The translations under genes were made by a program, and so were the position numbers. A model generated the notes under the pieces. That model worked only from the letters and a program-made list of their open reading frames with translations. It was not told the DNA's origin and made no database searches. Shown here in pieces: positions 16,076-56,147 of a stretch of DNA of 64,000 nucleotides. The stretch comes from Enterococcus phage vB_OCPT_CCS1. The stretch lies in the sequence record ON113170.1, one strand, 5' to 3'. Position 1 is the stretch's first letter; each line of letters begins with the position of its first letter.

Positions 16076-16085
16076 AAAAACAAAA

Positions 16086-16256: not shown

Positions 16257-16347
16257 AAAGGTGGAACCTCCCTAAATTTGGGGAAGAGGGAGGTTATCAT
16301 GCTATTAACAAACACGAATCTGCTAACCAAGTAATCTTGACTAGCAA

Positions 16348-16418: not shown

Positions 16419-16435
16419 ATTTTAGTTCTATCAAC

Positions 16436-39419: not shown

Positions 39420-42400
39420 ATGGCTAACAACTATCGGTTTTATGTTGATGCAATGACTGGGGATGCCATTGCAAAATTAGAAGAAGTTAACAAGTTGATG
39501 GATAAAATTGACTCTAAAAGTGCAAAGGGTACCCAGAAGTTTTTCCATACAACTCAACGGGAAATAGACGAAGCAGTAGCCGATATGCAACGTCTTATCC
39601 AAATGAAAAAGGAACTAGATAGAAACTTTGAAAAACAAAGTTCTATGGCGGAAGCTACAGGTAGCATGACAGACTTTAAACGTGCACGTGCAAACCTAGA
39701 ACAGTTACAAAGTGAGTTCCAAAAAACACAAAATGAGTTCCAAAAGTTAGCAAGCATGAAAGCTAACCCGAACTTTACGAATAAAACAGCTTTAAAAGAA
39801 CAAAGAGCATATAGAGAAGAGTTAACCGAGCAAGAAAAAGCCCTCCAAGCAATCAAGAAAGCTCAACAAGAATTAAACCATGTAAACTCTCGTGTAAACT
39901 ATAGAGCACGCCAAGCTACCTCCACAGGAAGAATGACCCACAATCAATCTGAAAGTATGAAGAAGGATTTAGGTGGTGTTGGTCTATATTCAGATACACA
40001 ACGAGAAAACAAGGAACGACAAGCTCAATTAAGAGAACAATACCGTAGACGACAAGAAGAACTATCGCAAGTACGTTCTGACACAAACTTAGATAGACAG
40101 GTTCGTAAGAACAGAGAGACATCTATTTTAGAGGAAATCAAAGGTATTGAACAAGAGATTGAAGCTCGTAAGAAATTTAATCAGACCTTGAATGATACTA
40201 TTGAGAACTTAAAAGCTAAAACAGAACAGTTAAACAATAGCAATGTCAAAGTAGAGGCGGATAGGAACTCCACTGCGGGCGTTATAGCTTCTCGTGCTCC
40301 ATCTATAGCCATTGCAGGTATAGGCTCTGCTATGGCGGCAATGGGAGGCTTATACGCTAAAGGAGCTACTGCTAATGCGGGTATGCGTGATTCAACTATC
40401 TCTTTAGGGCAACGTACAGGTAATGGTGACTTCCGTGCTATCCGTAAAGAAGCTCAAACGATGGGTATTGAGAAGCAACTTGGATATAAAGGGGCTGATA
40501 TGCTTCAATTCCAAGAAGATGCGTTAAGTAATATCGGATTTACCAACAAAGAAGACTTAACATCCAATACTAGAGCTTTAGCAGAAGGTTCACGTGCAGT
40601 TCCTGTTGATTCTGAAACCTTAAGCGGGTTTATGAACGACCAAATGCGTAGAGGCGCTGTGAGCGGTAAAGACCAAATTAAAGCGATTCAAGAAGGTTTC
40701 TTAGGGGCTATCCAAAAATCTGGTATGGTAGGTCGTGAAAAAGAGCAGTTAAATGCTTTGAAAACATTAAGTGACCAATCATTTAGTGGACGTAACGGTA
40801 GCAATGAGGAACTTAAACAACAAATGGCTATGCTTACGTTGTTGAATAAAACTGGTTCTCGTGCCGTTCAAGGTGAAGAGGGTGCTGAATTGATGACTAG
40901 CTTATCAGCAGGTATCCAAAACAGTATCTGGAATAACAAAGCCTCCCTACTTTTGGGTAAAGGTACAAAATACCAAGGTGGCGAGGGTATGTACGCTTTA
41001 AAAGGCAAAGTTGAAGAAGGAGCTACTGCGGAAAATGTAGGAGCTATTATTGGAAGTGTACAGCAATCTGGAGGTAGTGAGGACTATCAAAAATTTACAT
41101 TTGCTTCGGCTCTCCATGAATTGTTTGGAACTGATGCGAAAAACGACCAGATAGATGCTATGTGGAAAGCCTATGCAAATGGCAATCTAAATGAAGAAAA
41201 TATCAATAAGATTATGAATGAAAGCCAGTCTACTGGTAAGGACAAGTACAAGAAGAATGCAGATGACTATGCTAACTCTAAAGAGGGTATGGCTAACCGT
41301 TCCGAAGCAGTAACTGAGAAACAAGCTTCTGGTATTAATGATTATGGTGATGCTCTACGAGGAATTAACTCTAAACTAGGAGGAATCCCACCGGGTATGT
41401 ATGCTCTAGGCGCAGGTATGGGTGCCTTAGCAACTGCCTTGATTACTTCTGGTGGTATGTCTTTATTCTCTGGTAAAATAAAACAGGGTATAGGTACGAT
41501 GTTCTCAACAGGAACTACAACAGCCGGAGCAGGCAGTGCAGGCGGTTCATTCTTCAAAGGTGTAGGGCAAGCCTTTAAATCAGGTAAGGCTACTGGTGGA
41601 TGGTCAGCAGGTCTTAAGAATGCAGGTAGTACAGCTAAGGACTTAGCAGGTGCAAATATTGCTAGTGCTGATAGTATCGCAGGAGTTACTAAAGCAGGCT
41701 CTATGGCAGGTAAAGTCGGTAAAGTGGCGGGTAAGGTAGCTTTACCACTTGCTTTAGTAGGTTCCGCAATTGATATTGCAAGCTCAGATGACAAAGTAAA
41801 ATCTGTCGGAGAGAATGCCGGAGGTTTAGCAGGTGGGTTTGCCGGAGCTAAACTAGGTGCTTTAGCAGGTACAGCTATTATGCCGGGTGTTGGTACAGTT
41901 ATCGGTGGTGCTATAGGTGCTATCGGAGGTAGCTTAATTGGTAATAAAGCCGGTGGTGGTTTAGTAGATGGCGTTCGTAAGTTCTTTGGTGGAGAGGAAG
42001 CTTATGCAGACGAAGTAGATACAGGTACTTCCGCAGGTGGACAAAAAACGCTTAAGGGACAAGAGAACAAATCTGGTAAACAGGAAGAACGAGACATGGC
42101 AAACAAACATGTCCTTTCTGAAAAAACACGTGCTGAAAATAATGCTGAGGAAGCAACCAACTTGTCTATTTACTCAAAATTACTTGACAGAGCACAACGA
42201 ATATTAAACCAAGCTAGAAATCAAAATGGTATCTTTGGTAACTCTAAAGGTGCTAATAGTTCTAGTGATAGTGGTGGTATCGGTGATGACCCTGCAAGTA
42301 AAGATTTTGGTGGAGACTGGGAAAAAGCCATCCGTCAAGCTTCTAAGCAACTTGGGGTAGACGTTACTGACCAAGATGTGGACACATTACTTAAACTGAT

Positions 42401-43064
42401 TCAAGCAGAGTCTAATGGTGATGAAAAAGCTGTCCAACAAATCATTGATGAGAATAACTTCAATGGCTCTGGTGGTGCTAAAGGACTTCTACAATATATC
42501 CAATCTACATTCGATGCTTACAAAGTAAACGGACACGATGACATCATGAGTGGTTATGACCAACTACTAGCGTTCTTTAACAATAGTAACTGGCAAAAAG
42601 ACCTAAGCTCATGGAATAATCGTTACCAAAATGGTAGTACGGGCTGGGGTCCAACGGGTAGTAAGACTCACGCAATGGGTGGACATATCACTTCTCCGGA
42701 ACATGCCTTACTTGGTGAGGTACCGGGACAAGATGAATATGTTATTAACCCGCACCAACCTACAGCTCCTAGACTATTAGCAGAAGCTACTCGTAAAACT
42801 GCACAGAAATTCCGTTTGTTTGGTAATGGTTCTGGGGATAACTGGTCTTCTCGTGTAGGTGGAATTAGCCTATCAGGTTCCGGTAATTCAGCGCAGTCAC
42901 CAACATTAAACAATACGAACGAAGTTAAGGTTAATGTAACTGTTCAAGGTGGCGGAACTTCTGAAAGTATTGCTAATGAAATTGGTAATAAGACAGCAGG
43001 TAAGATTCTGCAATCAGTCGATGATGCAATGAGTTTCTTTACAAAAGAAATGAAACGAGTTTAA
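39420..43064 (+). CDS. tail tape measure protein with C-terminal lytic transglycosylase (SLT) domain
   Basis: 1214 aa; coiled-coil N-terminus; Gly-rich TM region; SLT motifs AESNGDEK...GAKGLLQYIQSTF. Confidence 0.8.
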   Translation: MANNYRFYVDAMTGDAIAKLEEVNKLMDKIDSKSAKGTQKFFHTTQREIDEAVADMQRLIQMKKELDRNFEKQSSMAEATGSMTDFKRARANLEQLQSEFQKTQNEFQKLASMKANPNFTNKTALKEQRAYREELTEQEKALQAIKKAQQELNHVNSRVNYRARQATSTGRMTHNQSESMKKDLGGVGLYSDTQRENKERQAQLREQYRRRQEELSQVRSDTNLDRQVRKNRETSILEEIKGIEQEIEARKKFNQTLNDTIENLKAKTEQLNNSNVKVEADRNSTAGVIASRAPSIAIAGIGSAMAAMGGLYAKGATANAGMRDSTISLGQRTGNGDFRAIRKEAQTMGIEKQLGYKGADMLQFQEDALSNIGFTNKEDLTSNTRALAEGSRAVPVDSETLSGFMNDQMRRGAVSGKDQIKAIQEGFLGAIQKSGMVGREKEQLNALKTLSDQSFSGRNGSNEELKQQMAMLTLLNKTGSRAVQGEEGAELMTSLSAGIQNSIWNNKASLLLGKGTKYQGGEGMYALKGKVEEGATAENVGAIIGSVQQSGGSEDYQKFTFASALHELFGTDAKNDQIDAMWKAYANGNLNEENINKIMNESQSTGKDKYKKNADDYANSKEGMANRSEAVTEKQASGINDYGDALRGINSKLGGIPPGMYALGAGMGALATALITSGGMSLFSGKIKQGIGTMFSTGTTTAGAGSAGGSFFKGVGQAFKSGKATGGWSAGLKNAGSTAKDLAGANIASADSIAGVTKAGSMAGKVGKVAGKVALPLALVGSAIDIASSDDKVKSVGENAGGLAGGFAGAKLGALAGTAIMPGVGTVIGGAIGAIGGSLIGNKAGGGLVDGVRKFFGGEEAYADEVDTGTSAGGQKTLKGQENKSGKQEERDMANKHVLSEKTRAENNAEEATNLSIYSKLLDRAQRILNQARNQNGIFGNSKGANSSSDSGGIGDDPASKDFGGDWEKAIRQASKQLGVDVTDQDVDTLLKLIQAESNGDEKAVQQIIDENNFNGSGGAKGLLQYIQSTFDAYKVNGHDDIMSGYDQLLAFFNNSNWQKDLSSWNNRYQNGSTGWGPTGSKTHAMGGHITSPEHALLGEVPGQDEYVINPHQPTAPRLLAEATRKTAQKFRLFGNGSGDNWSSRVGGISLSGSGNSAQSPTLNNTNEVKVNVTVQGGGTSESIANEIGNKTAGKILQSVDDAMSFFTKEMKRV

Positions 43065-43113: not shown

Positions 43114-45633
43114 ATGGCGGTAGAATTACGTTATCCTAGATTTAACCTAGCGTTTTATACAGAAAAAGACGAATACCATATTACGTATGATGCACAGACA
43201 GGTGAATCTAATACTTCTGTAGTAAACAAAGATAACGATTCAGAAGTTTCTAATAACTTTATGATTGAGTCTGTTATTAGTTTAACAACAAAAAATGCAA
43301 TGGAAGACGATAGTGCGGTCTTTTCTTTTGTTCTAGCCGGAGATGTATACTGGGACAGAATTTTAAAAGCTAACGATGCAGTTGTACTACGACTTTATCC
43401 TGATATAACCAGTGACCTACCTGTTAACCCAGTCTTACTAGTCGGGTTAATTTCAGAAGTGCGACTTGAAGGAGACTATGGGGAGAACTCTAAGATGTAT
43501 CGTATCACAGGTCAATCCTTTGCTAAGGCTTTAATGCAGTTTGACTTAGGTGTTATCCAAGAAGTAAGTGTTGTATTAACTGATATTGGTTGGCTCCCTG
43601 ATGATGCCCAAGAAGGGGTTAAAATGACAGGTAGAAGCGCCAGTCAGCTAGCAGAAGGAATGATGAACCGTTTCTTGCAATACATGAAATTCGATTTTAA
43701 TGGTAAAGGGTTAGAACGATTTTTAGAGTGGGAGCTGGATAGTTGGACAGAAGCTGAGCGTTTGATAGATAATACCCCGTATATTAACTATGAGGGTTCT
43801 CTAAAACAACTGTTAGATGACATCACAGCTAAACCATTCAATGAGCTATTCTTTGATGCTACACCAGAAAACAGATGTCGAATGGTTATGCGTAGAACAC
43901 CATTTGATAAAGCAGACTGGGAAAACTTGACTACGTATACTGTAACGTCTAAAGAAGTTATTTCTGAGTCAGTAGCAACAAATGATACAGAAGCCTATTC
44001 TATCTTTAATATTTCTATAAATAACCTTTATGGTACAGACTCTATGATGCTTGGTTCTAAACCACAGGTATTCCCCGCTTTAGTTAACAAATATGGCTAT
44101 AAGAAGCTAGAAGTTGATAACAAATATTTACAGGGTGCAATTGTAGATAGTGGGGATAATGCAGATAGTGCTGATACAAATACAGATGGGGATACAGAAA
44201 CTAACGAAGATACCGCTACAGAAAGACGTACAACTAGAGACAAAGATACGAATGAATCTAGTGCGTTTGATACGACTTATGGCACAGTAATGAACTATCT
44301 ACGTGGTTACCCATTAGACATCTTAAGGGTGAAACGTGGTAATGTGCGAGCTAAGATACTTCAAGTAGACAGACGTATCACAGGGACAATGGCAGACAAA
44401 ATCATTGACCAGTATATCATGACACAGAGCTTGACAAAAGAGCAGTTCACGGATATAACTGGTATCAACGAAAAGAATGCTAGCAAAGGTAACGGGAAAG
44501 AAAAACCTACCTACAAAAAAATTGTAAAATTCTTAGAAGATTACAAGGATGAAGCGGATAATAAGGAAACTACTACTATTAAGAATGAGCTTATGAATAA
44601 GTTCAACTTAACAGACAATCAAGCTACATCCATTGCTAGTGAATTTGTAGGTCAAAAAAGTTTACGTAAAACTAGATACGATGAAATCATGAAAAATAAC
44701 CCAAGTGATAGTACAACAGTTTCTGGTTCTGATACAAAGTATGTAAAAGAGTTTACAAAACGGTTGGCTAACTGGTACTGTGAGAATCCTAACTTTTATA
44801 GTGGAGATATTGTAGTTAAGGGTAGCCCAGACTATCGTTTAGGTGGAAGACTATTCGTAGTAGATGAACAGAATAACGAATTGTGGGAATATTACATTGA
44901 ATCCGTAGAGCACACTTTCTCCTACACACAAGGTTACACGACAACTTTAGGAGTTACTCGTGGTCTTAAAAATGGTGGTAAAGACCGTTTCACCCATCTT
45001 TGGGGCAAGTCAGAAGACTTCTCAGGAGGTATGTTAGGTGAAAAGACTTTAGAAGCTTTACTAGAAGACCAAGAAAAGAAAAACAATGAAAACAATAGTA
45101 ATTCTGGCTCTAGCGGTGGTTCAAGTGGTAGCACAAACCCATCGAATATCCCGGGTGGTACAGTAGCTATGAAAGCTGTAAACTGGGGACGTTCTCATTC
45201 TAAGACGGAATCTTCCTTTAGGTCTGCATACGACTGGGGAGGCGGACGTACAGGTAGAGACCCATTTGAAAGCTCTCCTATTGCCACTGACTGTTCTTCA
45301 TTTGTATGGTGGTGTTTTAAACATGCAGGTGTAGAATTAAATGGTGGGGCAACTGGGATGACTACATGGAGTATTATTGCGGATACGAAACTTGAAACAA
45401 TAGCTACCCGTGGTCAAAAGAACTCTGCTATTTTTGATAAGATGAAAGCAGGAGACATTATCTGGTTCCGTAACTGTGAGCATATTGGAATTTACTGTGG
45501 TGAAGGAAAAATGGTTGCATGTAATGGTTCAGGTAATATGAATGAAAGCCCTACAGCCGGTATTATTGTGTCAGACATGACAAGTGGATACTGGTGGGAC
45601 ACATTCGATGGAGACGTAAAAAGATACAACTAA
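43114..45633 (+). CDS. tail-associated lysin with C-terminal NlpC/P60 cysteine peptidase domain
   Basis: 839 aa; DCSSFVWWCF...EHIGIYCGEGKMV (Cys/His catalytic pair). Confidence 0.7.
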   Translation: MAVELRYPRFNLAFYTEKDEYHITYDAQTGESNTSVVNKDNDSEVSNNFMIESVISLTTKNAMEDDSAVFSFVLAGDVYWDRILKANDAVVLRLYPDITSDLPVNPVLLVGLISEVRLEGDYGENSKMYRITGQSFAKALMQFDLGVIQEVSVVLTDIGWLPDDAQEGVKMTGRSASQLAEGMMNRFLQYMKFDFNGKGLERFLEWELDSWTEAERLIDNTPYINYEGSLKQLLDDITAKPFNELFFDATPENRCRMVMRRTPFDKADWENLTTYTVTSKEVISESVATNDTEAYSIFNISINNLYGTDSMMLGSKPQVFPALVNKYGYKKLEVDNKYLQGAIVDSGDNADSADTNTDGDTETNEDTATERRTTRDKDTNESSAFDTTYGTVMNYLRGYPLDILRVKRGNVRAKILQVDRRITGTMADKIIDQYIMTQSLTKEQFTDITGINEKNASKGNGKEKPTYKKIVKFLEDYKDEADNKETTTIKNELMNKFNLTDNQATSIASEFVGQKSLRKTRYDEIMKNNPSDSTTVSGSDTKYVKEFTKRLANWYCENPNFYSGDIVVKGSPDYRLGGRLFVVDEQNNELWEYYIESVEHTFSYTQGYTTTLGVTRGLKNGGKDRFTHLWGKSEDFSGGMLGEKTLEALLEDQEKKNNENNSNSGSSGGSSGSTNPSNIPGGTVAMKAVNWGRSHSKTESSFRSAYDWGGGRTGRDPFESSPIATDCSSFVWWCFKHAGVELNGGATGMTTWSIIADTKLETIATRGQKNSAIFDKMKAGDIIWFRNCEHIGIYCGEGKMVACNGSGNMNESPTAGIIVSDMTSGYWWDTFDGDVKRYN

Positions 45634-45657
45634 CCTCGTTAATAGCGAGGTTTTTTT
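45634..45657 (+). terminator. rho-independent terminator after the tail lysin gene
   Basis: CCTCG-TTAATAG-CGAGG plus T7. Confidence 0.55.
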
Positions 45658-45683
45658 ACTGTAAAAAACAAAACTAGTATGTG

Positions 45684-45693
45684 TGCTATAATA
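45684..45693 (+). promoter_or_regulatory. TGCTATAATA motif upstream of the giant tail gene
   Basis: Recurrent decamer. Confidence 0.35.
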
Positions 45694-45732
45694 TTAAGTA
45701 GAGACACATACAAGAGAAAGGATGGTATCAAC

Positions 45733-48700
45733 TTGGCAGGAGGACGTAGATTTCAGGCAGGGTTAGGTTCCGAACATAAAAGATTATACAAAGAAGGACA
45801 ACAAATTAATACTTTGTTGCTAGCCCAAGTTATCCAAGTTAATTATAAATATAATACAGTTGATTTATTAGCATTACAGCATAAAGAAGTTTTCCAAAAC
45901 TCATATGCCAATGAAGGTAGATTCTCTGCTCGTTTACCAATGGAGTTTGGTGGACGAAACCTTGCAGGACAACCATATGGTCAAGTAAACCCCATTGCCG
46001 TTGGTACTGTTGTCCTAGTAGGTTTTATTAACTCTGATAAAGATATGCCGATTGTTATTAGTGTATACAATAACAACGATGTAAATAAACAATTATCTCG
46101 TACACGTTTTGCTAATGCAGAGCCTACAGATATGGCTTTAGCAGGACAAATGTACCAAAAATTTAGTTTGTACCCATCACTGACTTACGATAGCATTGAT
46201 GGAGATGGTAACCGAATAGTTACATTCTCAGGTAAATCCTTTATCGCATTTGATACAAAAGACATGCAAAACTCTCCAATGACGGATGCTAGCTACGGTT
46301 CTCGTTATGAAGACCTAGGAACATCTTATTACAATGACGGGGAACTAATTGAACCGATGAAAGGTCGAGCACCTAATGTGTTATTCAAACACCAAGGTAT
46401 TCTTGACGATGACAATAAACCTGACACACATAACTTCATGATTCACATTAACCCAGATGGAACATACCGTACATCTATGATGGATACGGAACAAGACTGG
46501 CGGACAATGTTTGAAATGACACCAGAAGGTAAAATACGTTTACGTAGACAGGGAGATACTGTACGCTTAAACGATGGTTTTGAGATTGGTGAGCTAGGTA
46601 TTAATGAAGAAGGTATCGTTTACCTACGTAATGGGGATATGGACTTAGAAGTTCGTGAAGACGGTATCTATTCCCAAGGTAAACTAATTACAGAAAGTAT
46701 CAATCTTGATGATATTTATGAAAAGTTAGCTAATGTTACTTTTGAAATTAATAAGACAAATGAGTCCTTGCAAATTTTAGCTGGTAAATCAGAAGTCCAA
46801 GACGGTAAAATTGTAAATCTAGAAACAGAAATTACAATTGTAGCCGGTAAAGTAGAGTCTAAAGTAAGTGCAACAGAAGTACAAGACATGATTGACAGTT
46901 CTATCGTAGACATGGCAGAGGCTATTAAACAAGCCCAAGAAGATGCAGACAGAGCAAATCAAATTATTTCTGATATGGCTAGTGATAACCGTTTGACTCC
47001 TAGTGAGAAGCTAGACTTACTAAAAGAGTGGGACATTGTTAAAAATGAATACCCAACTTATTTAGCACAAGCTGAATTATACGAAGTAGACAGCACGACA
47101 TATACTGCTAAGTACAAAGCTTTAGAAACATTTGTTACTCCTTTATTGGAAGACATGGAAGCTACTAGTGTAGTAGACGGCTCTATTATGCGTAAAACAT
47201 TTAGCGCATATTACACAGAACGAATCAATTTACTAAATGCAATCACTAAAGGGTTAAAAGACGGTTTAGAAGAGGCAATGAAGAAAGCTTCTCAGGCTTC
47301 TGTAGATGCTACACAAGCTTTAGCTGATTCTGCACAGGCACAAATTGATGCAAACAATGCAAAGCAATTGATTGCAGATATTGCTAGTGACGGTAAGCTG
47401 ACTGCTTCTGAAAAGTACCAATTGAAAAAAGAATGGGATGTTATTGTTAAGGAGTATCCTACAACAATTGCCCAAGCAACAAAATACAAAGTAAATACAG
47501 ATAACTATACTGCTAAGTATAAAGCTTTAGAAACATTTGTTACTCCTTTGTTTGCGAACATGAATGAAACAAGCGTAGTTAACGGGGAACAACTACGTGC
47601 AGTATTTTCTGATTACTATGCTGTAAAGATTACTTTATTAAAAGAAATCACAGATATTGCTCGTGATGAACTGACTGATTATGGTAACCGTATTACTGTA
47701 GCAGAAACAAAAATCACACAAACATCCGAAGCTATCACGTTAATGGCTTCCCGAGTGGAAACTGTTGAAAATGATGTTAGAACAAACACAGCGCAATTGA
47801 AAGTACAAGCAGACCTAATTAGTCAGAAAGTAACTGCTAGTGAAGTAAAAGATGCTATTGATAATGCAATTGATAACATGTCTATTGGTGGTTCTAACTT
47901 ATTTGTAATCAATACTCAAACAGCAGGACTACTAAATGAAAATAATGGTACTGTAGGAACAGCCGTAGATAAATCTGTAGTATCTAACTATATCAAGGTA
48001 ACAGCTAGAATGCCTTATGTAGCTTCTTTATATGGAAACACAGGGACAAACAGTATCATCATTGCATGGTATGACACAAGCAAAACGTTTATCTCTGGTC
48101 AAGCTGTAGCTGATTCCGGAGATTTCCATAAAACGTATGTTGCACCAGAAAATGCAGTATACGCTCGTTTAAGCTATAAGAAATCTGATACTGTTAAGAT
48201 GAAATTCGAAGTAGGTACAAAACCAACTGATTACAGCCCTGCATGGGATGATATTAAGGGTGACCAAACTGCTTTAGAGGAATACATCAAACAAGTAGAA
48301 GAACAAGCTAAGCAAGCACAGCAAGAAGCGGAAAATGCTAAGAATGAGGCTGAGAATGCAAATAGTGCAATTGCTGACATGTCTAACGACAACATGTTAA
48401 CAGCAAATGAGAAACAACAAATATTACTGCAATGGGAAGAAATTAAGACGGAGTACCCAATTAATTTAGACCAAGCAACTAAATTTGGAGTTTCTGCTAC
48501 GCAATATACAACAGCGTATAATGCACTAAAAACATACTTAGACCCATTGTTGGCAGACATGACAACAACTTCTGTAATTATTGGCTCTACTATGCGCAGT
48601 ACATTCAATACGTACTATGACCGTAGAACAACATTGCTTAACCGTGTAGCTGAACTAGCTAAACAAGTAGCTGACCAAGCTAAGGATACAGCAGATAAAG

Positions 48701-51700
48701 TAGACGATGACTTAAACAACATTGGTGGATACAACTATATTGGGTTCTCTTCCGGAGACCATATGTATCCTCGTTTAATGATTAAGAATGTTGGTTACTA
48801 TTACATTCCTTCTACAACAAGCGCAGAATTTGTGAGTGACATGGTTTGTCTAAAACCAAAAACAGCAACAGTTACAAGCGTTCAGTATGACGTTGGTAAT
48901 GCCAATGCTAGTGTGGCTGATGTTGGGCTTGCTAACTATCGAATGAAAGAAGTTAAAACAGGTCAATGGCTGACTGCTTCTGCGAATTTAAAAGTTGTAG
49001 GAACAGGTACTGCGTATCTAACGATTTTTACACTTGAAAATGGTTCGTGGAAAGCTTCATATAGTGATAGAGTTAACGCAAGTCAAGGAGTAACTCGTGT
49101 AGTAGCTCAAAGACAAGTAACAGATGCAACCACAGGTATTTTAGTTCGAGTTGATGGTAGTAGCATAACCGAAGTTCATTTTGGAAATATGCAATTAGAA
49201 GTTGGTATTCGCTCTACCCCTTGGAAGAAATCAGACATTGACATTCAAGAAGACATCAATAATGTTGCGGACGATATTAAAGATTATATTGGTGCTCGTT
49301 CTGATAACTTAATCACAAATGGTTTTGGTGAACTAGGGAACAATACGAACATTGGTGGTATCTTTGATGGTGCTGATAGAATTGTAGGTAAAGGTTCCTT
49401 CCGTCAAGAAGAAGCAAATAAATCACTGCTATTTAGTGAACACATTGTTATTGATAATAAAAAAGTCTATAACTTTGACTACTACATGCACACATTAAAA
49501 GGTGTAGGTCGAAGTTTTGCAATGATTTGCCCTTATGACGTAGACGGTGTTCGTATTACTTACCCTTCTCTCGGGGGACGAAACTACAACTCTACTACCC
49601 CTGTTGAATTTACAAAACTGACAAAACCGCTGAAAGTCGGGGATACAGAGGTTTTTGTAGAAGATGTTAGTCTATGGAACGGACAGGCACCGCAAGACTA
49701 CCAACGTAGTATTATCATGTGGGGCTATAAAAACTCGTTCGGCTATACTTATCCCGATGGAACGTATAGTCAGCTAATGCAGATGAGGACATATGATATT
49801 GGTGCAGTTGACACCACAGCTAACAAGATTACGTTAAACAAGCCATGGGCAGTTGCAAATCCAAATAGTTCAGATGGGATTTTCCCAGTAGGGCATACAC
49901 TTAGCCCAACTTCTGACGGCTCCACATATTTGTATTTGAATGGTCACGTAAATATACAAGTACCTACTACGTACACCAAGTACAGCCATTTGATTAGTGG
50001 CTCTTCTGAGTTTGCTAATACAACGATTATCCCAGTAGAAACAGGTTCTATTCAACTTGGATTCTTATTGAACCGTGATACAACAGGTGAAAAATCTTGG
50101 CTAAACGGTTTACGTCTACGTGACTATACAGATACGTATAAACTAAACGATGACGTTAGAGAAACACAAGAAAACGTAGACAAAGCCCAAGCAGATGCTA
50201 ATAAAGCTAATCAGTCAATTGCCGACCTATCTAATGATAATCTAGTTACTCCGAATGAGAAATTAGACTTGAAAAAAGAATGGGAAATCATTGTTGCCGA
50301 AAAACCTAAGAATGATGCTCAGGCAGATAAGTTCGGGGTAAGCAAAGTAGCTTATGGTACTGCGTATACAGCTTTAAGTAACTACATCACACCTATCTTA
50401 GCAAGCACAACAACGAACTCAGCTATTGTAGGGCAAACTATGCGGGACACGTTTAAAGCATATTACACAGCTCGTACAGACCTTTTAAATGCTGTTGCTA
50501 CAAAAGCGAAAGACTTAGCTGATACAGCGCAGTCTGGGGTAGAACAAGTTAAAGCAAAGGCTGAAAAGGCACAAGCTGATGCTACTAAAGCTCAACAAGA
50601 TGCAAGTAAAGCACAACAAGATGCTACTAAAGCAAATCAGGCTATTACAGACTTATCTAATGATAATCTAGTTACTCCTAATGAAAAGCTAGACTTGAAA
50701 AAAGAATGGGAAATCATTGTAGCTGAAAAACCTATTAACGACACTCAAGCGGATAAATTCGGAGTAAGTAAAACGGACTACGGTACGAAGTACACAGCTT
50801 TAAGTAACTACATTACACCTATCTTGACTGATTTAACAACCAACTCTGCTATTGTAGGTCAGACTATGAGAGATACGTTCAGAGCATACTACACTGCAAG
50901 AACGAATCTACTAAACTCAATCAGTGTAAAAGCTAAGGAACTAGCAGATAAAGCCCAAACAGATGCTAACAATGCACAGAATAGTGCAAATAACGCACAA
51001 AGTTCAGCTAACCAAGCTCAAACGGATGCTACAAATGCACAAAACAGTGCAAACAAAGCTCAAGCAGATGCTACTAAGGCTAACCAATCAATTGCAGACT
51101 TATCTAATGATAATCTAGTTACTCCTAATGAGAAATTGGATTTGAAAAAAGAGTGGGAAATTATTGTAGCTGAAAAACCCAAGAACGATGCTCAAGCAGA
51201 TAAATTTGGTGTAAGTAAAACCACCTATGGTACTGCATATAATGCACTGAACACCTATCTAACTCCAATACTGGCAAATTTAACAACAAATTCTGCGATT
51301 GTTGGACAGACGATGAGGGATACGTTTAAGACGTACTACTCTGCTCGTACTGATTTATTAAATGCTATTGCATCTAAAGCTAAGGATTTAGCTGATAACG
51401 CACAAGATACAGCGGATAACATAGCTGTCGGTACTCGTAACCTTTTAATCGGGACACAGGACTTTTCCAAAGGTAAATATCCGGGGAATACGCATATTAC
51501 AATTACAGATGAAAAACTGTTTGGAAATGCAGTAATGAAAAATGACTTTACTACAGGTACAGGATACTCAGACATGTATCAACTGACTACCTCAATTATT
51601 CCAACAGGTACTCAGTATACGTTATCGTTCTATGCAAAAGCAGATATAGACAAAACAAAAATGTCTTGCTACTTCTACAACCCAAACACTACGGTAAATA

Positions 51701-53643
51701 GTGTAAACAATCAAGGAGGTAGGATTACCTCTAGTGATGGACGTTCTGTATTCGTTTTAAGTACAGAATGGACTAAATACTGGGTAACTTGGACACAGAC
51801 ACAAGCAGATAGACCTAAATCAGTAATTATTGGTCGTAAGACTGGTGGGGAAGAACCTAACTCTGCTTTCTACATGTCTTCTCCAATGCTAGTAGAAGGG
51901 AACAAACCACAAACGTGGATGAAAGCCCCAGAAGACATCGAAACGGCTATAAACGGTAAAGAAGGTGCTTGGGTTTACTCACCAACAGCACCAACAAATC
52001 CGGCTATTGGTTTAGTCTGGGTGGATTCTTCTAAGACTCCAAACCAACCAAAACGTTGGGTAGGAGGAGAAACTGGATGGGTTGCTCTAACCCCAGAAGA
52101 AGTAAAAGACTTGCCTTGGGGTGAAGACGGTTCTAACCTTGCTGACTGGGTGGCACAAGCAGAACAAAAGATTTCTTCTGATGCAATCATTAATACTGTA
52201 TTAGGTTCTGAGGACTTTACAGGTATCTTTGACAAGAAGGCTAACACAGAAGACTTGAACAACCTTGCTTCTTACGATGACTTAGATGCTATGCAAGCTG
52301 AGTATGAACGTTTGCTAAAAGAGGGTATTGCAGGAATTGACTTCTCACCATATGTAACTAATACGGAGTTAGAACAGTTGAAAGATAGCTTCACTTTCTC
52401 TGTTCAACAAGCCGGTGGGGTTAATATGTTGAAGAACTCTCTGGGATTCTCCGGACTAGATTTCTGGGATGATGACAGCGGACGAAATTTCTATCGTAAA
52501 AACAACTCCGTTACAGTTACTAACCCTAATGTTAAATTTGAGAGAACAGCCGACACACCTAATGGGTTCAAATTAACTGGCGCACAAGACCGTAGTGGTA
52601 CTGTTAGAATTAATAACGTCATCAACTCAAATGGTTATTGGACAGTTTCTTTCTGGTTAAGGGGAAGTCAAAGCGGAACTAGTAACTTCCAAATGGATAT
52701 TTGTGATTTGGGAGTTACAAATTTTGCGGTCACGGCTGATAATGACTGGCGAAAGGTATCGTTAACTGTGAATGTTACTAACTATAGTCAATCAACTTAT
52801 CACTTCGTTGATTTTCAAAACATCGCTTGGGCATACTTCTTTATAAAAGACTTCAAAGTTGAGAAGGGAATAACTGCAACTGACTGGACTCCTGCCCCAG
52901 AAGATGCTATTGTGTTTGACCCTATTGTCACCACTACACAGAACGACCAACTAGCTAAACTAGGATTTGGTTCTGGGTTTATGGTAAACCGAGCACAAAA
53001 TGCAATATTACGTCAGACAATCGAATTACCAGAAGCAAAACAAGGATTGCAATATGCCTTGTCCTTCTATATGAACGTAGCTACCTTTGGAGACACTACA
53101 GGTTTACAATGTGGGGCACGTATTTATGAAGAAGGTGTGTTGAAATACACAGTAGGAGTAACAGATGCTACACAAGGCATTCCAAGTGACTATCACTTGT
53201 ATAAACTTGTATTTGAACCGGAATCCCCAAATACTGTCATTGAGCTGTTTGTTATAAATGGGGCACAAGCAACTGTAATCATATCAGGGGTTATGTACAA
53301 CATTGGTAACATTGCGTTGAAATGGCAACCGTACCCAAGTGAAATCTATAATACGAACGTTAAGATTGATATTAACGGTATTACTGTTAAGAATAATCAA
53401 ACAGATGGTTATACAATGATTACTCCGCAAGAGTTTTCAGGTTATGCTAGGGTTAACGGGGAGATGGAACGTATCTTTACGTTAAATGGTCAGGTAACAG
53501 AGGTTAAGATGTTGAAGGCGGAAAAACGTATTACTATGGAACCTATTTCTGTGTTTGCGATGAACTCCAAGGAAACCAACACGATTGGTTGGGCGTTTGT
53601 AGCTTCCGGGGATGTTAGCCATACTACGGTGTCTAACACATAA
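45733..53643 (+). CDS. giant tail/baseplate protein (about 2636 aa) with six tandem roughly 135-aa repeats and CBM-like modules
   Basis: The track ORF starts at 45679 but overlaps the TGTGCTATAATA promoter; in-frame TTG at 45733 with AAAGGATGG RBS proposed as the start. Repeats ADLSNDNLVTPNEKLDLKKEWEIIVAEKP... Confidence 0.65.
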   Translation: MAGGRRFQAGLGSEHKRLYKEGQQINTLLLAQVIQVNYKYNTVDLLALQHKEVFQNSYANEGRFSARLPMEFGGRNLAGQPYGQVNPIAVGTVVLVGFINSDKDMPIVISVYNNNDVNKQLSRTRFANAEPTDMALAGQMYQKFSLYPSLTYDSIDGDGNRIVTFSGKSFIAFDTKDMQNSPMTDASYGSRYEDLGTSYYNDGELIEPMKGRAPNVLFKHQGILDDDNKPDTHNFMIHINPDGTYRTSMMDTEQDWRTMFEMTPEGKIRLRRQGDTVRLNDGFEIGELGINEEGIVYLRNGDMDLEVREDGIYSQGKLITESINLDDIYEKLANVTFEINKTNESLQILAGKSEVQDGKIVNLETEITIVAGKVESKVSATEVQDMIDSSIVDMAEAIKQAQEDADRANQIISDMASDNRLTPSEKLDLLKEWDIVKNEYPTYLAQAELYEVDSTTYTAKYKALETFVTPLLEDMEATSVVDGSIMRKTFSAYYTERINLLNAITKGLKDGLEEAMKKASQASVDATQALADSAQAQIDANNAKQLIADIASDGKLTASEKYQLKKEWDVIVKEYPTTIAQATKYKVNTDNYTAKYKALETFVTPLFANMNETSVVNGEQLRAVFSDYYAVKITLLKEITDIARDELTDYGNRITVAETKITQTSEAITLMASRVETVENDVRTNTAQLKVQADLISQKVTASEVKDAIDNAIDNMSIGGSNLFVINTQTAGLLNENNGTVGTAVDKSVVSNYIKVTARMPYVASLYGNTGTNSIIIAWYDTSKTFISGQAVADSGDFHKTYVAPENAVYARLSYKKSDTVKMKFEVGTKPTDYSPAWDDIKGDQTALEEYIKQVEEQAKQAQQEAENAKNEAENANSAIADMSNDNMLTANEKQQILLQWEEIKTEYPINLDQATKFGVSATQYTTAYNALKTYLDPLLADMTTTSVIIGSTMRSTFNTYYDRRTTLLNRVAELAKQVADQAKDTADKVDDDLNNIGGYNYIGFSSGDHMYPRLMIKNVGYYYIPSTTSAEFVSDMVCLKPKTATVTSVQYDVGNANASVADVGLANYRMKEVKTGQWLTASANLKVVGTGTAYLTIFTLENGSWKASYSDRVNASQGVTRVVAQRQVTDATTGILVRVDGSSITEVHFGNMQLEVGIRSTPWKKSDIDIQEDINNVADDIKDYIGARSDNLITNGFGELGNNTNIGGIFDGADRIVGKGSFRQEEANKSLLFSEHIVIDNKKVYNFDYYMHTLKGVGRSFAMICPYDVDGVRITYPSLGGRNYNSTTPVEFTKLTKPLKVGDTEVFVEDVSLWNGQAPQDYQRSIIMWGYKNSFGYTYPDGTYSQLMQMRTYDIGAVDTTANKITLNKPWAVANPNSSDGIFPVGHTLSPTSDGSTYLYLNGHVNIQVPTTYTKYSHLISGSSEFANTTIIPVETGSIQLGFLLNRDTTGEKSWLNGLRLRDYTDTYKLNDDVRETQENVDKAQADANKANQSIADLSNDNLVTPNEKLDLKKEWEIIVAEKPKNDAQADKFGVSKVAYGTAYTALSNYITPILASTTTNSAIVGQTMRDTFKAYYTARTDLLNAVATKAKDLADTAQSGVEQVKAKAEKAQADATKAQQDASKAQQDATKANQAITDLSNDNLVTPNEKLDLKKEWEIIVAEKPINDTQADKFGVSKTDYGTKYTALSNYITPILTDLTTNSAIVGQTMRDTFRAYYTARTNLLNSISVKAKELADKAQTDANNAQNSANNAQSSANQAQTDATNAQNSANKAQADATKANQSIADLSNDNLVTPNEKLDLKKEWEIIVAEKPKNDAQADKFGVSKTTYGTAYNALNTYLTPILANLTTNSAIVGQTMRDTFKTYYSARTDLLNAIASKAKDLADNAQDTADNIAVGTRNLLIGTQDFSKGKYPGNTHITITDEKLFGNAVMKNDFTTGTGYSDMYQLTTSIIPTGTQYTLSFYAKADIDKTKMSCYFYNPNTTVNSVNNQGGRITSSDGRSVFVLSTEWTKYWVTWTQTQADRPKSVIIGRKTGGEEPNSAFYMSSPMLVEGNKPQTWMKAPEDIETAINGKEGAWVYSPTAPTNPAIGLVWVDSSKTPNQPKRWVGGETGWVALTPEEVKDLPWGEDGSNLADWVAQAEQKISSDAIINTVLGSEDFTGIFDKKANTEDLNNLASYDDLDAMQAEYERLLKEGIAGIDFSPYVTNTELEQLKDSFTFSVQQAGGVNMLKNSLGFSGLDFWDDDSGRNFYRKNNSVTVTNPNVKFERTADTPNGFKLTGAQDRSGTVRINNVINSNGYWTVSFWLRGSQSGTSNFQMDICDLGVTNFAVTADNDWRKVSLTVNVTNYSQSTYHFVDFQNIAWAYFFIKDFKVEKGITATDWTPAPEDAIVFDPIVTTTQNDQLAKLGFGSGFMVNRAQNAILRQTIELPEAKQGLQYALSFYMNVATFGDTTGLQCGARIYEEGVLKYTVGVTDATQGIPSDYHLYKLVFEPESPNTVIELFVINGAQATVIISGVMYNIGNIALKWQPYPSEIYNTNVKIDINGITVKNNQTDGYTMITPQEFSGYARVNGEMERIFTLNGQVTEVKMLKAEKRITMEPISVFAMNSKETNTIGWAFVASGDVSHTTVSNT

Positions 53644-53732: not shown

Positions 53733-56147
53733 ATGGCTATAAGCGGTAGCAAGTATACAGCTTTTGCAAGACATAGACTTGTATTAGAATGGAGAGCTTC
53801 TCAAAATATTGCAGGTAACTATTCTGATGTAAGTATTTGGTTGTATTTGCAATCTATGGATGCCTATGGTGCAATGTATGCCTCCGCTGTAGGTCAAGCG
53901 CAGGTAACAGCCAATGGGCTAAGACAAACAGAAAATGCGACCTCGCAATTGAACGCATATCAGAAAAAATTATTATTAGCCAAAGTTTGGCGTGTCAACC
54001 ATGATGCAGATGGTAACAAATCATTTACTATTACCGGTAGCTACTTTGTAAACGTAACATTTGCAGGAGTTTATTATGGAACAATTACTATACCTGCATT
54101 TGCGGTCTATTTAGATAGAATCCCACGTAAGAGTTCTTTGAACCCTGTTCCGGATTTGAATATTCCAAACAAACTAAGTGTAAGTATTACTCGACAAAGT
54201 TCTAGTTTTAATCATAACCTAACTGTTTGGGTAGCTAACAGAGCAAGCCCTACTCTAACTAATGATGACCACTGGGTTTACCTAAATAGTATTGAGAATG
54301 TAGGAACAAGTGGTACGTTTACTTTTAGTGTAGCAAACTTTACTGAAATGTTCAAGAGGATGGGTACAAACACCGAATGGGTAGGTAAGGTGAAGCTCTG
54401 GACGAATGGTTTGAATGAGTCTGAGCCAAGCCAACAACGAACCTTCCGAATAAAACCTCCAATGAATGCGCAAGCTTCCGGTGGTAACTTAAAAGTTAAA
54501 GTAGGAGAAAAAATTACAGTTAACCTAAGTAATTTTCAATCTGATGCTAACTTTAAATATACTGGTGTATTCGACTATCGAGGAGTATCCATACCAGTAG
54601 CAACAAATGTACATGCTAATTCTATGACTCTTACATTAACCCAAGCAAACGTGGATTCTATCTTGAAAGAGTCTCCGGATGATGCAGGAACATGGGGGCA
54701 AGTACGAGTAACAAGTTACTATAATGGTGTACAATATCGTACTCCTTGGACTGGACAACATATTGATTGTACCATTCCTAAAGAAGATTATCTACCTGTA
54801 ATCAACGGGACACCGACTTATACTGATTTAAGTGCCGAAGCTACTAACGTTACCGGAAGTAATCAAGTAGCGTTACAAAGTAAGTCTAATATCCGTGTGA
54901 CTATTCCTGCTAACTTTGCCACAGGTCAAGGATTCTCAACGATTAAAACCGTTCAAGCCTCTTTAGGTGGTGCTACCAAGACAGCAAACTATGATGCTTC
55001 TGGATTTAATATTGATATTGGAGCACCAAATGAAGGAACAGCTTCTACATTAGTTGTTACTGTGTTAGATAGTCGTGGATTCAATACTTCATGGACAAAA
55101 ACAGTTCAAGTATATCCGTATACAAATCCGGATGTTGCTTACACGATTGCTCGTAGAAACAACTTTGAAGTAGACACGGAGTTAACAGTTTCAAGTAGTT
55201 GGGCACCCGTTACTATTAGTGGGGTAAACAAAAACGCAATTACTGCTGTAACTTACGCAACAAAACGAGCAGGTACTGATACTTGGGGTTCAGAAACACC
55301 CGTTACTTTTAGTACTGATGGTACAAAAGTTATTGTTCCTACCACTGTTGTTCAGATACCTAACGAATATAGTTGGAATTTCCGTCTAACTATTAAGGAT
55401 AAATTTGGTAGTTTTTCTAGGGAAGCAAATATTCCTGCCGGAAAGCCTATCATGTTCATTGATGCGGTTCGTGAATCTGTAGGTTTTGGTAATTTAACCG
55501 GTACAGGAGAAAGCCGTAATCTTAATGGTGTTATTGAGATTGAACCTGATAGATACCACAGCACAGGTAAAACTGGTATTCAGATGAATAATAGTGATAT
55601 TTCTGGTCTGAATGGTCTATTCTTCTCTAATGACGTAATGGATAATGACGGGGAAGGTCTTCACTTTATTAAGTCAGGTAAAAATATTAACTCCCCTAAT
55701 CAAAGTCAAGATTACGATCGTATGTACATGAGAGATAACGGATTCTATGTTAACCATGATGGCACTCCAATATTTAAAGTTACTGATAATGGTCGTATGT
55801 ACTATCCGGCTAACATGCTATGGTCAGGTGGTTGGTATATGTCAGCCAGTCAAGTTATAACACCATCTAAGCCTTTGTCTGAATGTAGAAATGGTTGGGT
55901 GCTTATGTGGGTTAAATACATGAATGGTGCTTCTTCATGGAACGACATGATTCAAACTTACATTGGAAAAGATATGGTAACTACTGCATCTACTTCGGGC
56001 GTTCGATTGTTGTTCGGTGGATATGGTGACGTTGTTGCTCATAAATATCTCTATGTTACTGATACGCAAATAAAAGGTAATGACAACAATTTTAAAGGTG
56101 AAAACTACGCTAACCGAGCGGTACTAGTAAGGGTACACGAATTTTAA
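53733..56147 (+). CDS. tail fibre/baseplate protein (804 aa)
   Basis: Position; Ser/Thr/Asn-rich beta-type composition. Confidence 0.55.
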   Translation: MAISGSKYTAFARHRLVLEWRASQNIAGNYSDVSIWLYLQSMDAYGAMYASAVGQAQVTANGLRQTENATSQLNAYQKKLLLAKVWRVNHDADGNKSFTITGSYFVNVTFAGVYYGTITIPAFAVYLDRIPRKSSLNPVPDLNIPNKLSVSITRQSSSFNHNLTVWVANRASPTLTNDDHWVYLNSIENVGTSGTFTFSVANFTEMFKRMGTNTEWVGKVKLWTNGLNESEPSQQRTFRIKPPMNAQASGGNLKVKVGEKITVNLSNFQSDANFKYTGVFDYRGVSIPVATNVHANSMTLTLTQANVDSILKESPDDAGTWGQVRVTSYYNGVQYRTPWTGQHIDCTIPKEDYLPVINGTPTYTDLSAEATNVTGSNQVALQSKSNIRVTIPANFATGQGFSTIKTVQASLGGATKTANYDASGFNIDIGAPNEGTASTLVVTVLDSRGFNTSWTKTVQVYPYTNPDVAYTIARRNNFEVDTELTVSSSWAPVTISGVNKNAITAVTYATKRAGTDTWGSETPVTFSTDGTKVIVPTTVVQIPNEYSWNFRLTIKDKFGSFSREANIPAGKPIMFIDAVRESVGFGNLTGTGESRNLNGVIEIEPDRYHSTGKTGIQMNNSDISGLNGLFFSNDVMDNDGEGLHFIKSGKNINSPNQSQDYDRMYMRDNGFYVNHDGTPIFKVTDNGRMYYPANMLWSGGWYMSASQVITPSKPLSECRNGWVLMWVKYMNGASSWNDMIQTYIGKDMVTTASTSGVRLLFGGYGDVVAHKYLYVTDTQIKGNDNNFKGENYANRAVLVRVHEF

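Follow-up and report, generated by a model that had tools for sequence, protein, structure and literature searches.

A modular tail fibre gene of an Enterococcus Schiekvirus, probably encoding the central fibre, with a distal helical array whose unit number appears to change by in-register unequal recombination

The DNA analysed here, referred to below as the window, is a stretch of 64,000 nucleotides from Enterococcus phage vB_OCPT_CCS1 (ON113170.1) and it carries, on the + strand, a single large open reading frame at 45679..53643 that encodes a tail fibre protein. Read from the TTG codon at 45733 to the stop at 53643, the product has 2636 amino acids, and inspection of the sequence revealed no ribosome-binding site for the upstream ATG at 45679. 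The features of the gene and its surroundings are collected in Table 1. Among the closest records, which are those of Schiekvirus phages, is the EFP01 'putative tail fiber' (95.7% nucleotide identity, with 94% of the query gene covered), and the adjacent 25 kb are 98.7–98.8% identical to phiSHEF16, Porthos and 21C1; on these identities the window is assigned to an Enterococcus Schiekvirus (Herelleviridae). The fibre protein is 97–98% identical to those of EFP01 and Porthos over residues 1–2250 and 72% identical to that of EFLK1 over residues 1–1190. By identity and synteny, the flanking genes being the same, it belongs to a Schiekvirus/Kochikohdavirus orthologue group that includes EFV12PHI1_98, PORT_106, EFP01_072 and phiEF24C ORF31.

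Immediately upstream lies a gene for a hub protein with a lysin domain, the counterpart of which is annotated as baseplate hub protein in iF6, and the preceding ORF at 39420–43064 matches, in relatives, genes with a tape measure annotation. The resulting gene order, tape measure, hub/lysin and spike, is that of a baseplate-core block. A terminator-like hairpin is present at 45632–45652, upstream of the fibre gene.

Table 1. Features of the fibre gene and its upstream region in the window, with residues counted from the TTG start
Feature	Position (nt)	Residues	Strand	Basis
Baseplate hub gene with lysin domain, upstream	43114..45633		+	PHROG 1015 'tail protein with lysin activity', E 1e-295
Ribosome-binding site AGAAAGGA	45716..45723		+	10 nt before TTG 45733; read directly from the sequence
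Probable central spike / central tail fibre gene	45733..53643		+	ORF; TTG start as annotated in 9 relatives
N-terminal region homologous to phage 812 central spike (OB and beta-prism domains and part beyond)	45748..46830		+	phmmer against PDB
Helical unit 1	46900..47268	390–512	+	unit HMM 196.6 bits; alignment
Helical unit 2	47305..47673	525–647	+	unit HMM 186.3 bits
Probable beta-sandwich module A	47866..48285	712–851	+	weak partial C1-domain HMM matches, iE 0.011 and 8e-5
Helical unit 3	48304..48675	858–981	+	unit HMM 191.1 bits
Probable beta-sandwich module B1	48709..49278	993–1182	+	C1-domain HMM iE 8.5e-6; same start and end motifs as module A
Module B2	49279..50151	1183–1473	+	between B1 and unit 4
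Helical unit 4, first of distal tandem array	50152..50523	1474–1597	+	unit HMM 201.6 bits; 75–77% nt identity to units 5 and 6
Helical unit 5	50578..50949	1616–1739	+	unit HMM 203.4 bits
21-nt (heptad-coding) repeats, unit 5–6 linker and start of unit 6	50950..51073		+	TRF period 21, 5.9 copies; alanine-zipper-like
Helical unit 6	51025..51396	1765–1888	+	unit HMM 205.3 bits
CBM-like beta-sandwich module C1	51409..51972	1893–2080	+	AlphaFold2 and Foldseek
Extra beta-sandwich module C2	52483..52926	2251–2398	+	lacking in most relatives
Probable beta-sandwich module C3	52993..53370	2421–2546	+	C1-domain HMM iE 2e-6

The N-terminal region matched the central spike protein of Staphylococcus phage 812 in a phmmer search against the PDB (9euf_B, E 1.1e-52; fibre residues 6–366 against 4–355), and the window protein is therefore taken to be the central fibre. 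The domain roles of the 812 spike and its placement in the baseplate are described in PMC13433997, where the OB and beta-prism part was resolved by cryo-EM inside the hub channel, which these domains plug. From this homology, the fibre may be a homotrimer on the tail axis, and the remaining ~2270 residues would form a long extension projecting from the baseplate. The orthologues in phiEF24C and EfV12-phi1 have been stated to be peripheral long tail fibres, the phiEF24C homologue being so called in the discussion of PMC6365445, and many records carry a 'tail fiber' annotation. Nevertheless, a peripheral rather than central location is most unlikely for the window protein, given that its N-terminal 366 residues are homologous to that part of the 812 spike that was seen within the hub channel, that the gene comes straight after those for the tape measure and hub and that the iF6 annotators chose the name putative central tail fiber. 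Pfam and NCBIfam scans of the fibre protein detected no phosphodiesterase family corresponding to a glycerophosphodiester phosphodiesterase 'petal' domain, and those PHROG 'phosphodiesterase' matches for which best stretches were listed aligned with N-terminal residues of the fibre, up to about residue 728. The lack of a glycerophosphodiesterase domain implies that the distal chemistry differs from that of phage 812.

Beyond the N-terminal region there are six homologous in-frame units of ~124 residues, with pairwise BLASTP E-values of 4e-25 to 1e-58. A preliminary description of the locus, made from the sequence, had proposed a giant tail protein with six tandem repeats, of which the last three were nearly identical DNA sharing stretches of ~300 bp. 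The tail assignment is borne out by the match to the 812 central spike and by the tail-fibre orthologues, and the six repeats were found at the positions claimed. They are not all in tandem, however, but arranged as 2 + 1 + 3, with gaps of about 210 and about 490 residues of non-repeat sequence, and the groups are separated by probable beta-sandwich modules. The near-identity of the last three did not hold at the DNA level, where units 4–6 show only 76–77% nucleotide identity with longest exact runs of 25–37 nt. Their protein identity is 80–82%, different codons are used at 34–42 of the ~89 identical residues and the synonymous sites are saturated (dS 1.7–2.6), with dN/dS values of 0.04–0.09.

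Structure prediction for one repeat, which had been suggested as a check, produced for unit 5 an AlphaFold2 model of four helices (pLDDT 90.7), a monomer model in which helices 1 and 4 may be misplaced. The unit matched no family in Pfam or NCBIfam and no PDB sequence, and a Foldseek search of the PDB yielded only generic four-helix bundles, all with E > 1. In phages of Bacillus, Lactobacillus, Acinetobacter and Fusobacterium, predicted tail proteins have the same fold, with TM values of at least 0.9. Searching a word-indexed protein collection with the unit profile gave only 4 short matches and an exhaustive search of representative proteins was used instead; in a second word-indexed search all listed matches were at most 1284 residues long and, therefore, that collection may lack giant homologues. 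The exhaustive search detected 2700 representative proteins at E <= 1e-3, these being phage tail proteins, and among the 150 best profile matches the number of units per protein ranged from 1 to 11, with two or more in all but two.

Spacing between units is quantised in heptads (128+7n residues), 128 of the 323 spacings being 2 mod 7 (chi-square p 6e-38). Within the window, the linker between units 5 and 6 scored 24.7 bits with Pfam Alanine_zipper (PF11839), above the cut-off of 23.1, at residues 1734–1787 from the TTG, or 1752–1805 in the numbering of the scanned translation, which starts at ATG 45679; the NCBIfam Ala_zip_lipo model remained below its cut-off. Helical units and alanine-rich heptad linkers could together form rod segments, possibly with trimeric geometry, that would determine how long the fibre is and how far apart its predicted sugar-binding modules lie.

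An alternative function for the units would be as ligand-binding adhesin modules, built as GA-like helical bundles, such that copy number would alter valency and not length. Four of the six units match Pfam GA_3 (PF22775, GA-like domain), the units 4–6 protein is under strong purifying selection, as judged by the low dN/dS, and one structural neighbour, from Bacillus phage pW4, is annotated as a receptor binding protein. The GA_3 matches all lie below threshold, however, the best reaching 20.7 bits (E 6e-4) against a cut-off of 27, and no solved structure resembles the unit more closely than do the generic bundles. Moreover, spacing in heptad steps suggests that the structure constrains the register, and the occurrence of the unit in Acinetobacter, Fusobacterium and Bacillus phages argues against one shared ligand, such that we consider an adhesin role unlikely.

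For the beta-sandwich modules, a fold of the CBM4/CBM16/CBM22 type was established for C1 only. Its AlphaFold2 model (pLDDT about 80–97 for model residues 12–188) matched in the PDB, by Foldseek, a phage 812 baseplate chain (2.7e-8), the BT_4411 sugar-binding protein (9e-7), CBM16 (5e-6, TMt 0.60), CBM4-2 (1.6e-5), CBM22 (2e-5) and CBM61 (1.8e-4), and its sequence scored 39.4 bits with NCBIfam GTA_spike_fiber (cut-off 36). Hence, of the CBM-like modules attributed earlier to the C-terminal third, C1 is supported by fold and the others by weaker sequence evidence only. Module A has both its start motif (IGGSNLF) and its end motif (EVGTKPTDYSPAWDD) in common with the C1-type modules, while module B2 gave no match to Pfam, NCBIfam or the C1-domain HMM. 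When the C-terminal 748 residues were modelled with AlphaFold2 the mean pLDDT was 50, with confidence limited to the first domain and the C3 stretch of low confidence.

Module C2 is missing in EFP01, Porthos, EFDG1, 21C1 and EA1, is 97% identical in phiSHEF16 and phage 163, and shows 40–47% identity to sequences in Lactobacillus and Bacteroides phage tail fibres. Its score against the C1 profile was inflated because MAFFT had placed C2 homologues into C1 columns, and we relied on links between C2 and C1 through the intermediate sequences P0181 and P0187. Overall, the extension would alternate the six 124-residue four-helix units with carbohydrate-binding-like beta-sandwich modules, at least one and probably five in number, and these modules may bind sugars.

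Copy number does vary among isolates, as the preliminary description had foreseen. Among 22 sequences, namely the window itself, two database proteins and 19 genomes or contigs of phages, distal arrays of 0, 1, 2, 3, 4 or 6 units were counted, with phylogeny as a confounding factor. Phages that are ~99% identical in the adjacent 25 kb can have arrays of 2, 3 or 4 units, and the natural variants differ by single units of 0.43–0.45 kb. The distal array has one unit in EFDG1, two in 21C1, three in Porthos and four in phiSHEF16. The phiSHEF16 record starts and ends within the array, with a 124-nt overlap, and its unit count is therefore assembly-dependent; naive joining of the ends generates a frameshift and removal of the terminal overlap yields an intact ORF. 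The idea that unit number is tied to the host species was dropped: every named isolate with an array of three or four units was obtained on E. faecium, but the pattern is confounded with phylogeny.

Some of the variants, with single and double arrays, carry chimeric units. Unit 5 of 21C1 corresponds to unit 5 on its left and unit 6 on its right (informative sites 21:4 and then 2:66), and in both EA1 and iF6 the only distal unit combines a unit 4 left part with a unit 6 right part. Of the three clear chimeras, two have their crossover on short identity islands, the intervals at nt 76–102 and 138–156 matching exact runs at 77–101 and 139–155 between the parental units. Such in-register chimeric units in the variants are as predicted for unequal recombination. 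The earlier proposal of recombination altering the length of the protein was correct in kind, given the chimeras and the copy-number variants, but its premise of ~300 bp of identical DNA was not.

On a stronger version of that proposal the array would be a high-frequency slippage locus, in which near-identical distal units generate length variants within every lysate. Three adjacent units with 80–82% protein identity and a copy number that varies among isolates would be compatible with such a locus, as would the appearance of duplications in EfV12-phi1 within 8 days (PMC6365445), although the latter events hit a different 1.8 kb segment. At the DNA level the units have a nucleotide identity of 76–77%, a longest exact run of 37 nt and saturated dS, TRF reported only the 21-nt heptad repeats and no unit array, and the head-to-tail near-identical DNA repeats of a slipped-strand (contingency-type) locus were not found. 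Orthologous units are also recognisable across phages, which implies that turnover is slow relative to point divergence. Since the identity islands extend over only 17–37 nt in units that are otherwise ~76% identical, frequent slippage of near-perfect repeats is not expected and we judge this account very improbable.

Differences in architecture could also arise mainly by exchange of whole segments between co-infecting phages, and not by unequal crossover within a lineage. The gene is mosaic: the window has C2 in common only with phiSHEF16 and phage 163, of which phage 163 has a single distal unit, B2 is lacking in P0006 and L021, the iF6 and window proteins share only 66% identity past the array, and units 4 and 5 of EFP01 have patches that match other units. 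However, the chimeras are in register, with breakpoints on islands between paralogues, and thus require misaligned pairing of paralogues whether in one phage or in two. Because this pairing is needed either way, segment exchange complements the main explanation and does not replace it; as the principal source of the differences we consider it rather doubtful.

We regard it as likely, therefore, that the gene encodes a central spike or central tail fibre with a module-alternating extension, the distal unit count of which is altered by in-register unequal recombination. The crossovers would use the identical islands of 17–37 nt, which encode the most conserved motifs, DLSNDNLVTP and IIVAEKP, and each event would add or remove about 142–149 residues with the reading frame kept. 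Changes in unit number, together with swaps of beta-sandwich modules, could plausibly tune adsorption to enterococcal surface polysaccharides, and unit number may in this way influence host range.

More tentatively, and as a possibility falling somewhat short of probable, the unit could represent a very widespread and uncurated length ruler of tail fibres, locked to heptads (128+7n), where conserved codon islands within copies that have otherwise diverged at synonymous sites permit a rare but invariably in-frame gain or loss of units, and the EfV12-phi1 duplications could have arisen by unequal exchange between units 3 and 4. This would offer a testable mechanism for those published duplications. 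The analysis also draws attention to a common tail-fibre module with neither a curated Pfam or NCBIfam family nor a solved structure. Enterococcal phage therapy makes use of schiekviruses, and the fibre gene is the one that changes upon adaptation to resistant hosts. Countable helical spacers, shifts in their number by in-register recombination and swappable modules, predicted to be sugar-binding, could all help in engineering or predicting host range.

Rod-forming helical repeats are known from Gram-positive surface proteins, an example being the GA and FIVAR repeats of the S. aureus protein Ebh, which are about 125 residues long, have helices arranged head to tail and are thought to form a stalk. 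To these the window unit bears a functional analogy only, the GA_3 matches being below cut-off and no PDB match occurring at E < 1. As proposed for the window protein, gp112 of phage 812 (PDB 9EUF, 9EUL; PMC13433997) has a fibre-like helical extension from the baseplate centre, and its distal domains are believed to target polymers of the cell wall. It differs in having 848 residues that comprise a single coiled coil, a TNF-like knob and a phosphodiesterase petal (PMC13433997), whereas the window protein has six helical units and several beta-sandwich modules and is about three times the length. In phage T4, a small adhesin domain of the tail fibre is recorded as expanding the host range when duplicated (Tetart et al. 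1996, as cited in PMC6365445). In both cases a segment of a tail fibre would be duplicated in frame, thereby changing host recognition, but T4 is a Gram-negative phage with a peripheral fibre where the binding domain itself is duplicated, and in the window the repeated element is a helical module in a probable central fibre.

EfV12-phi1, a phage of the same genus, provides an experimental parallel. In-frame 1.8 kb duplications evolved in its orthologue, EFV12PHI1_98, during coevolution under host resistance (Wandro et al. 2019, PMC6365445), and no repeat was linked to them in that publication. The spacing from unit 3 to unit 4 in EfV12-phi1 is 1866 nt, and the proposed tie of the duplication to these units consists of matching size and primer positions. 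A search for longer direct repeats that might explain the duplication found only the weak similarity between units 3 and 4, which are 60% identical in nucleotide sequence and have no exact run longer than 9 nt. The two phages carry the orthologous gene at the same genomic position, with 93% protein identity over residues 1–1640 and the same first four units; they differ in that EfV12-phi1 has one distal unit (four in total, 2205 residues) and the window has three (six in total) plus C2 (2636 residues). In this orthologue group the gene has been implicated in adsorption or host range, and in-frame length change has been documented experimentally. A derivative of Porthos with expanded host range and better adsorption carries a mutation in PORT_106, the host-range gains being due to point mutations and not to changes in unit number; Porthos proved independent of the variable epa locus (PMC11210271). 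For phiEF24C, a point mutation in ORF31 raised adsorption, according to the work cited in PMC10054541. The tail protein is one already linked to adsorption in related phages, and the window carries a further variant of it for which in-frame duplication has a published precedent.

The giant tail gene lies within a single open reading frame on the + strand of the window (45679-53643). The equivalent of a TTG codon at 45733 is the annotated gene start in nine annotated relatives, and the ribosome-binding site AGAAAGGA occurs 10 nt 5' of this codon; the protein is therefore taken to be 2636 aa, with residues numbered from the TTG. The ATG at 45679 lacks a ribosome-binding site. Megablast searches with the gene and the adjoining 25 kb led to Schiekvirus (Herelleviridae, Brockvirinae) phages of Enterococcus, with EFP01 showing 95.7% identity across 94% of the gene, and positions 18001-43000 were 98.7-98.8% identical to phiSHEF16, Porthos and 21C1. 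No record in the phage collection covered more than 94% of the gene and, therefore, its exact combination is new, but only as an allele. Elsewhere, a full-length tmRNA gene (142.7 bits with Rfam RF00023, cut-off 47; tag peptide AKNEELLAVA from ARAGORN) is embedded in a 24-gene tRNA cluster of this lytic phage genome.

Comparison of one repeat unit with the whole protein by BLASTP yielded six copies (E 4e-25 to 1e-58), and an HMM built from these was used to place their boundaries. The copies lie where the preliminary description had located them; its six tandem repeats proved to be arranged as 2 + 1 + 3, the groups being separated by other sequence of about 210 aa and about 490 aa. The last three units, which it had considered nearly identical in DNA, with shared stretches of about 300 bp, are 80-82% identical in protein and 76-77% in nucleotide sequence, and their longest pairwise exact runs are 25-37 nt. 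They use different codons at 34-42 of about 89 identical residues, with saturated dS values of 1.7-2.6 and dN/dS of 0.04-0.09 (Nei-Gojobori). Tandem Repeats Finder detected just two short arrays, both of 21-nt repeats.

Features of the giant tail gene and of other parts of the window
Feature	Nucleotides	Residues	Basis or remark
Cluster of 24 tRNA genes	7091-16419		
tmRNA gene, - strand	9549-9899		Rfam
ORF matching relatives' annotated tape measure genes	39420-43064		5' of spike gene
Hub/lysin gene	43114-45633		5' of spike gene
Unit 1	start 46900	390-512	HMM
Unit 2	start 47305	525-647	HMM
Unit 3	start 48304	858-981	HMM
Unit 4	start 50152	1474-1597	HMM
Unit 5	start 50578	1616-1739	HMM
Unit 6	start 51025	1765-1888	HMM
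21-nt array, unit 5 start	50578-50634		Tandem Repeats Finder
21-nt array, linker 5-6 into unit 6 start	50950-51073		Tandem Repeats Finder
Module C1		1893-2080	
Module C2	52483-52926	2251-2398	
804-aa tail protein gene	53733-56147		PHROG 372

Evidence for changes in unit number came from relatives, scored at the informative sites where units 4, 5 and 6 of the window differ. The last unit of 21C1 resembles unit 5 on its left side and unit 6 on its right (sites 21:4, then 2:66), and the single distal units of EA1 (17:1, then 9:51) and iF6 (14:0, then 11:54) both pass from unit 4 to unit 6. Units 4 and 5 of EFP01 carry short patches matching other units. The crossover intervals of EA1 (nt 76-102) and 21C1 (nt 138-156) coincide with the longest exact runs of their parental units (77-101 and 139-155), where the motifs DLSNDNLVTP and IIVAEKP, both conserved, are encoded; that of iF6 (nt 50-54) falls off any such run. 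Judged from their sequences, these chimeric units bear the mark of unequal recombination, in register, between paralogous units, and the simplest reading of 21C1, EA1 and iF6 is that one or two units were lost. The slipped recombination proposed in the preliminary description is thus right in kind and the feature itself is real, but the stated basis of 300-bp identities and six tandem units is not borne out: the recombination operates on islands of 17-37 nt. We would, therefore, expect unit gain or loss to be rare per generation.

The count of distal units covered the window, two database proteins and 19 phage genomes or viral contigs. None is present in EFLK1 (Kochikohdavirus) and one in EFDG1, EFGrKN, EfV12-phi1, UTI-EfS3, ZJGS3, A2, iF6, EA1, phage 163 and the viral contigs L018 and L019. 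Two occur in 21C1 and relative L017, three in the window, EFP01, Porthos and relatives L021 and L022, four in phiSHEF16 and database protein P0006, and six in database protein P0005. Arrays of two, three and four units are found within phages that are about 99% identical over the adjoining 25 kb. The linear phiSHEF16 record (loci L015 and L016; OL799260.1), in which the orthologue is not annotated, begins and ends within the repeat array with a 124-nt exact terminal overlap, and removing this overlap restores an intact 2785-aa ORF with seven units. For phage 113 (locus L008; MZ147816.1, 6055-13372), the annotation splits the orthologue into two overlapping ORFs; the frame changes within unit 4, near residue 1503, and this reflects either a genuine frameshift or misassembly of the repeat region.

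Length change has also been observed experimentally. In its orthologous tail fibre gene, EfV12-phi1 evolved in-frame 1.8 kb tandem duplications in varying numbers; they appeared in each of the four coevolution lines but in none of the controls, and no mechanism was given for them (Wandro et al., PMC6365445). The flanking primers of that study map to EfV12-phi1 residues 802 and 1584, and units 3 (aa 858-981) and 4 (aa 1480-1603) of this phage are spaced by 1866 nt. Moreover, the duplication was placed about 400 bp upstream of a domain predicted to bind carbohydrates (PMC6365445), which agrees with an end of the duplicated segment close to where unit 4 begins. On the basis of this size, the primer positions and the placement, we propose that the duplications are unequal exchanges between units 3 and 4, each event adding one unit together with module B1 and the following segment B2 (window residues 1183-1473); the support is confined to size and position. 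Between these two units, DNA identity is only 60% and no exact run exceeds 9 nt; the EfV12-phi1 gene showed no better repeat to account for the 1.8 kb duplication.

A Porthos derivative with a wider host range and better adsorption carried a mutation in the orthologue PORT_106, together with mutations in neighbouring genes (PMC11210271), and a point mutation in ORF31 of phiEF24C raised adsorption, as cited in PMC10054541; these mutations link the gene with adsorption. Downstream of it, the gene for an 804-aa tail protein is orthologous to EFV12PHI1_97, where N306K arose in all EfV12-phi1 lines, controls included, and to PORT_107, where all Porthos derivatives share one common missense substitution (published evolution experiments).

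An AlphaFold2 model of unit 5 (pLDDT 90.7, pTM 0.83), for which the other five units served as the input alignment, shows four helices (unit residues 2-26, 34-61, 66-83 and 94-123). Foldseek searches of the PDB returned generic four-helix bundles only, all with E > 1, no solved relative was found by sequence, and there is no curated family for the unit, with four of the six copies matching Pfam GA_3 below its cut-off (20.7 versus 27 bits). A profile search run exhaustively against 1.84 billion cluster representatives yielded 2700 proteins with E <= 1e-3, of which 533 reached E <= 1e-30. The best 150 of the 2700 carry 1 to 11 units each, tandem or interspersed, with at least two in all except two proteins, and one of them additionally has Prophage_tail and YOMG_N, which are domains of distal tail proteins in siphoviruses. 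Among predicted viral structures, the fold occurs (TM >= 0.9) in tail proteins from phages of Bacillus, Lactobacillus, Acinetobacter and Fusobacterium. One partial protein of 132 aa, labelled Arthrospira platensis SPKY2 (P0002), is 47% identical to the unit, and is probably a phage-derived or contaminant sequence in that assembly.

Among the representative proteins, 323 pairs of neighbouring units show start-to-start spacings that peak at 128, 135, 142, 149 and 156 residues, and 128 of the spacings equal 2 mod 7 (chi-square p 6e-38, a value that overstates independence because the proteins are related, although the pattern is clear). AQxxAxx heptads make up the unit 5-6 linker, which scores above the Pfam Alanine_zipper cut-off. 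We infer that a coiled-coil register is maintained across helix 4, the linker and the following unit's helix 1, and that the units serve as rod segments. Both 21-nt arrays encode alanine-rich heptads. Linker lengths among relatives step by whole heptads (11, 18, 25, 39 and 46 aa), and so the heptad arrays may provide a second, finer mechanism of length variation.

Of the modelled C-terminal 748 aa, only model residues 12-188, within C1, are predicted with confidence; they form a beta sandwich (pLDDT about 80-97). Foldseek matched C1 to a phage 812 baseplate chain (2.7e-8), the sugar-binding protein BT_4411 (9e-7) and CBM16, CBM4, CBM22 and CBM61 (5e-6 to 2e-4), and NCBIfam GTA_spike_fiber scores above its cut-off there. 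C1 and C2 are linked through two homologues, P0181 and P0187, that align with both. Weaker matches to the C1 profile occur at aa 712-851, 993-1182 and 2421-2546, and all of these modules begin with a GG-x-N-L/Y motif and end with one resembling EGxxxxDWxPAPED. The CBM-like modules of the preliminary description are thus borne out by fold for C1, and only by sequence for four others. C2 (148 aa; predicted beta sandwich) is extra relative to EFP01, Porthos, 21C1, EFDG1 and EA1, is present at 97% identity in phiSHEF16 and phage 163, and has homologues (40-47% identity) in tail fibres of Lactobacillus (L. plantarum) and Bacteroides phages, a distribution that suggests module exchange between distant phage groups.

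That the gene belongs to an established orthologue group, and that length change occurs inside it, is known; new here are the unit definition, its wide distribution and heptad-locked spacing, the chimeric-unit evidence for copy-number change, a testable explanation for the EfV12-phi1 duplications, and the assignment of the gene as a central spike. Residues 6-366 match residues 4-355 of 9euf_B (E 1.1e-52) in a PDB sequence search, an entry named 'GP-PDE domain-containing protein' from Staphylococcus phage 812, which is the central spike protein of that phage, its OB and beta-prism domains sitting as a trimer within the hub channel (PMC13433997). No phosphodiesterase domain was detected in the window protein. 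Given the N-terminal homology and the gene context downstream of the tape measure and hub/lysin genes, we conclude that the product is a central spike or central fibre, the name also given to the orthologue by the annotators of iF6. The label 'glycerophosphoryl diester phosphodiesterase' in many relatives appears to reflect the shared N-terminus only. The window protein thus has its N-terminal part in common with the phage 812 central spike and differs from it in the phosphodiesterase domain and in a distinct, much larger distal part.
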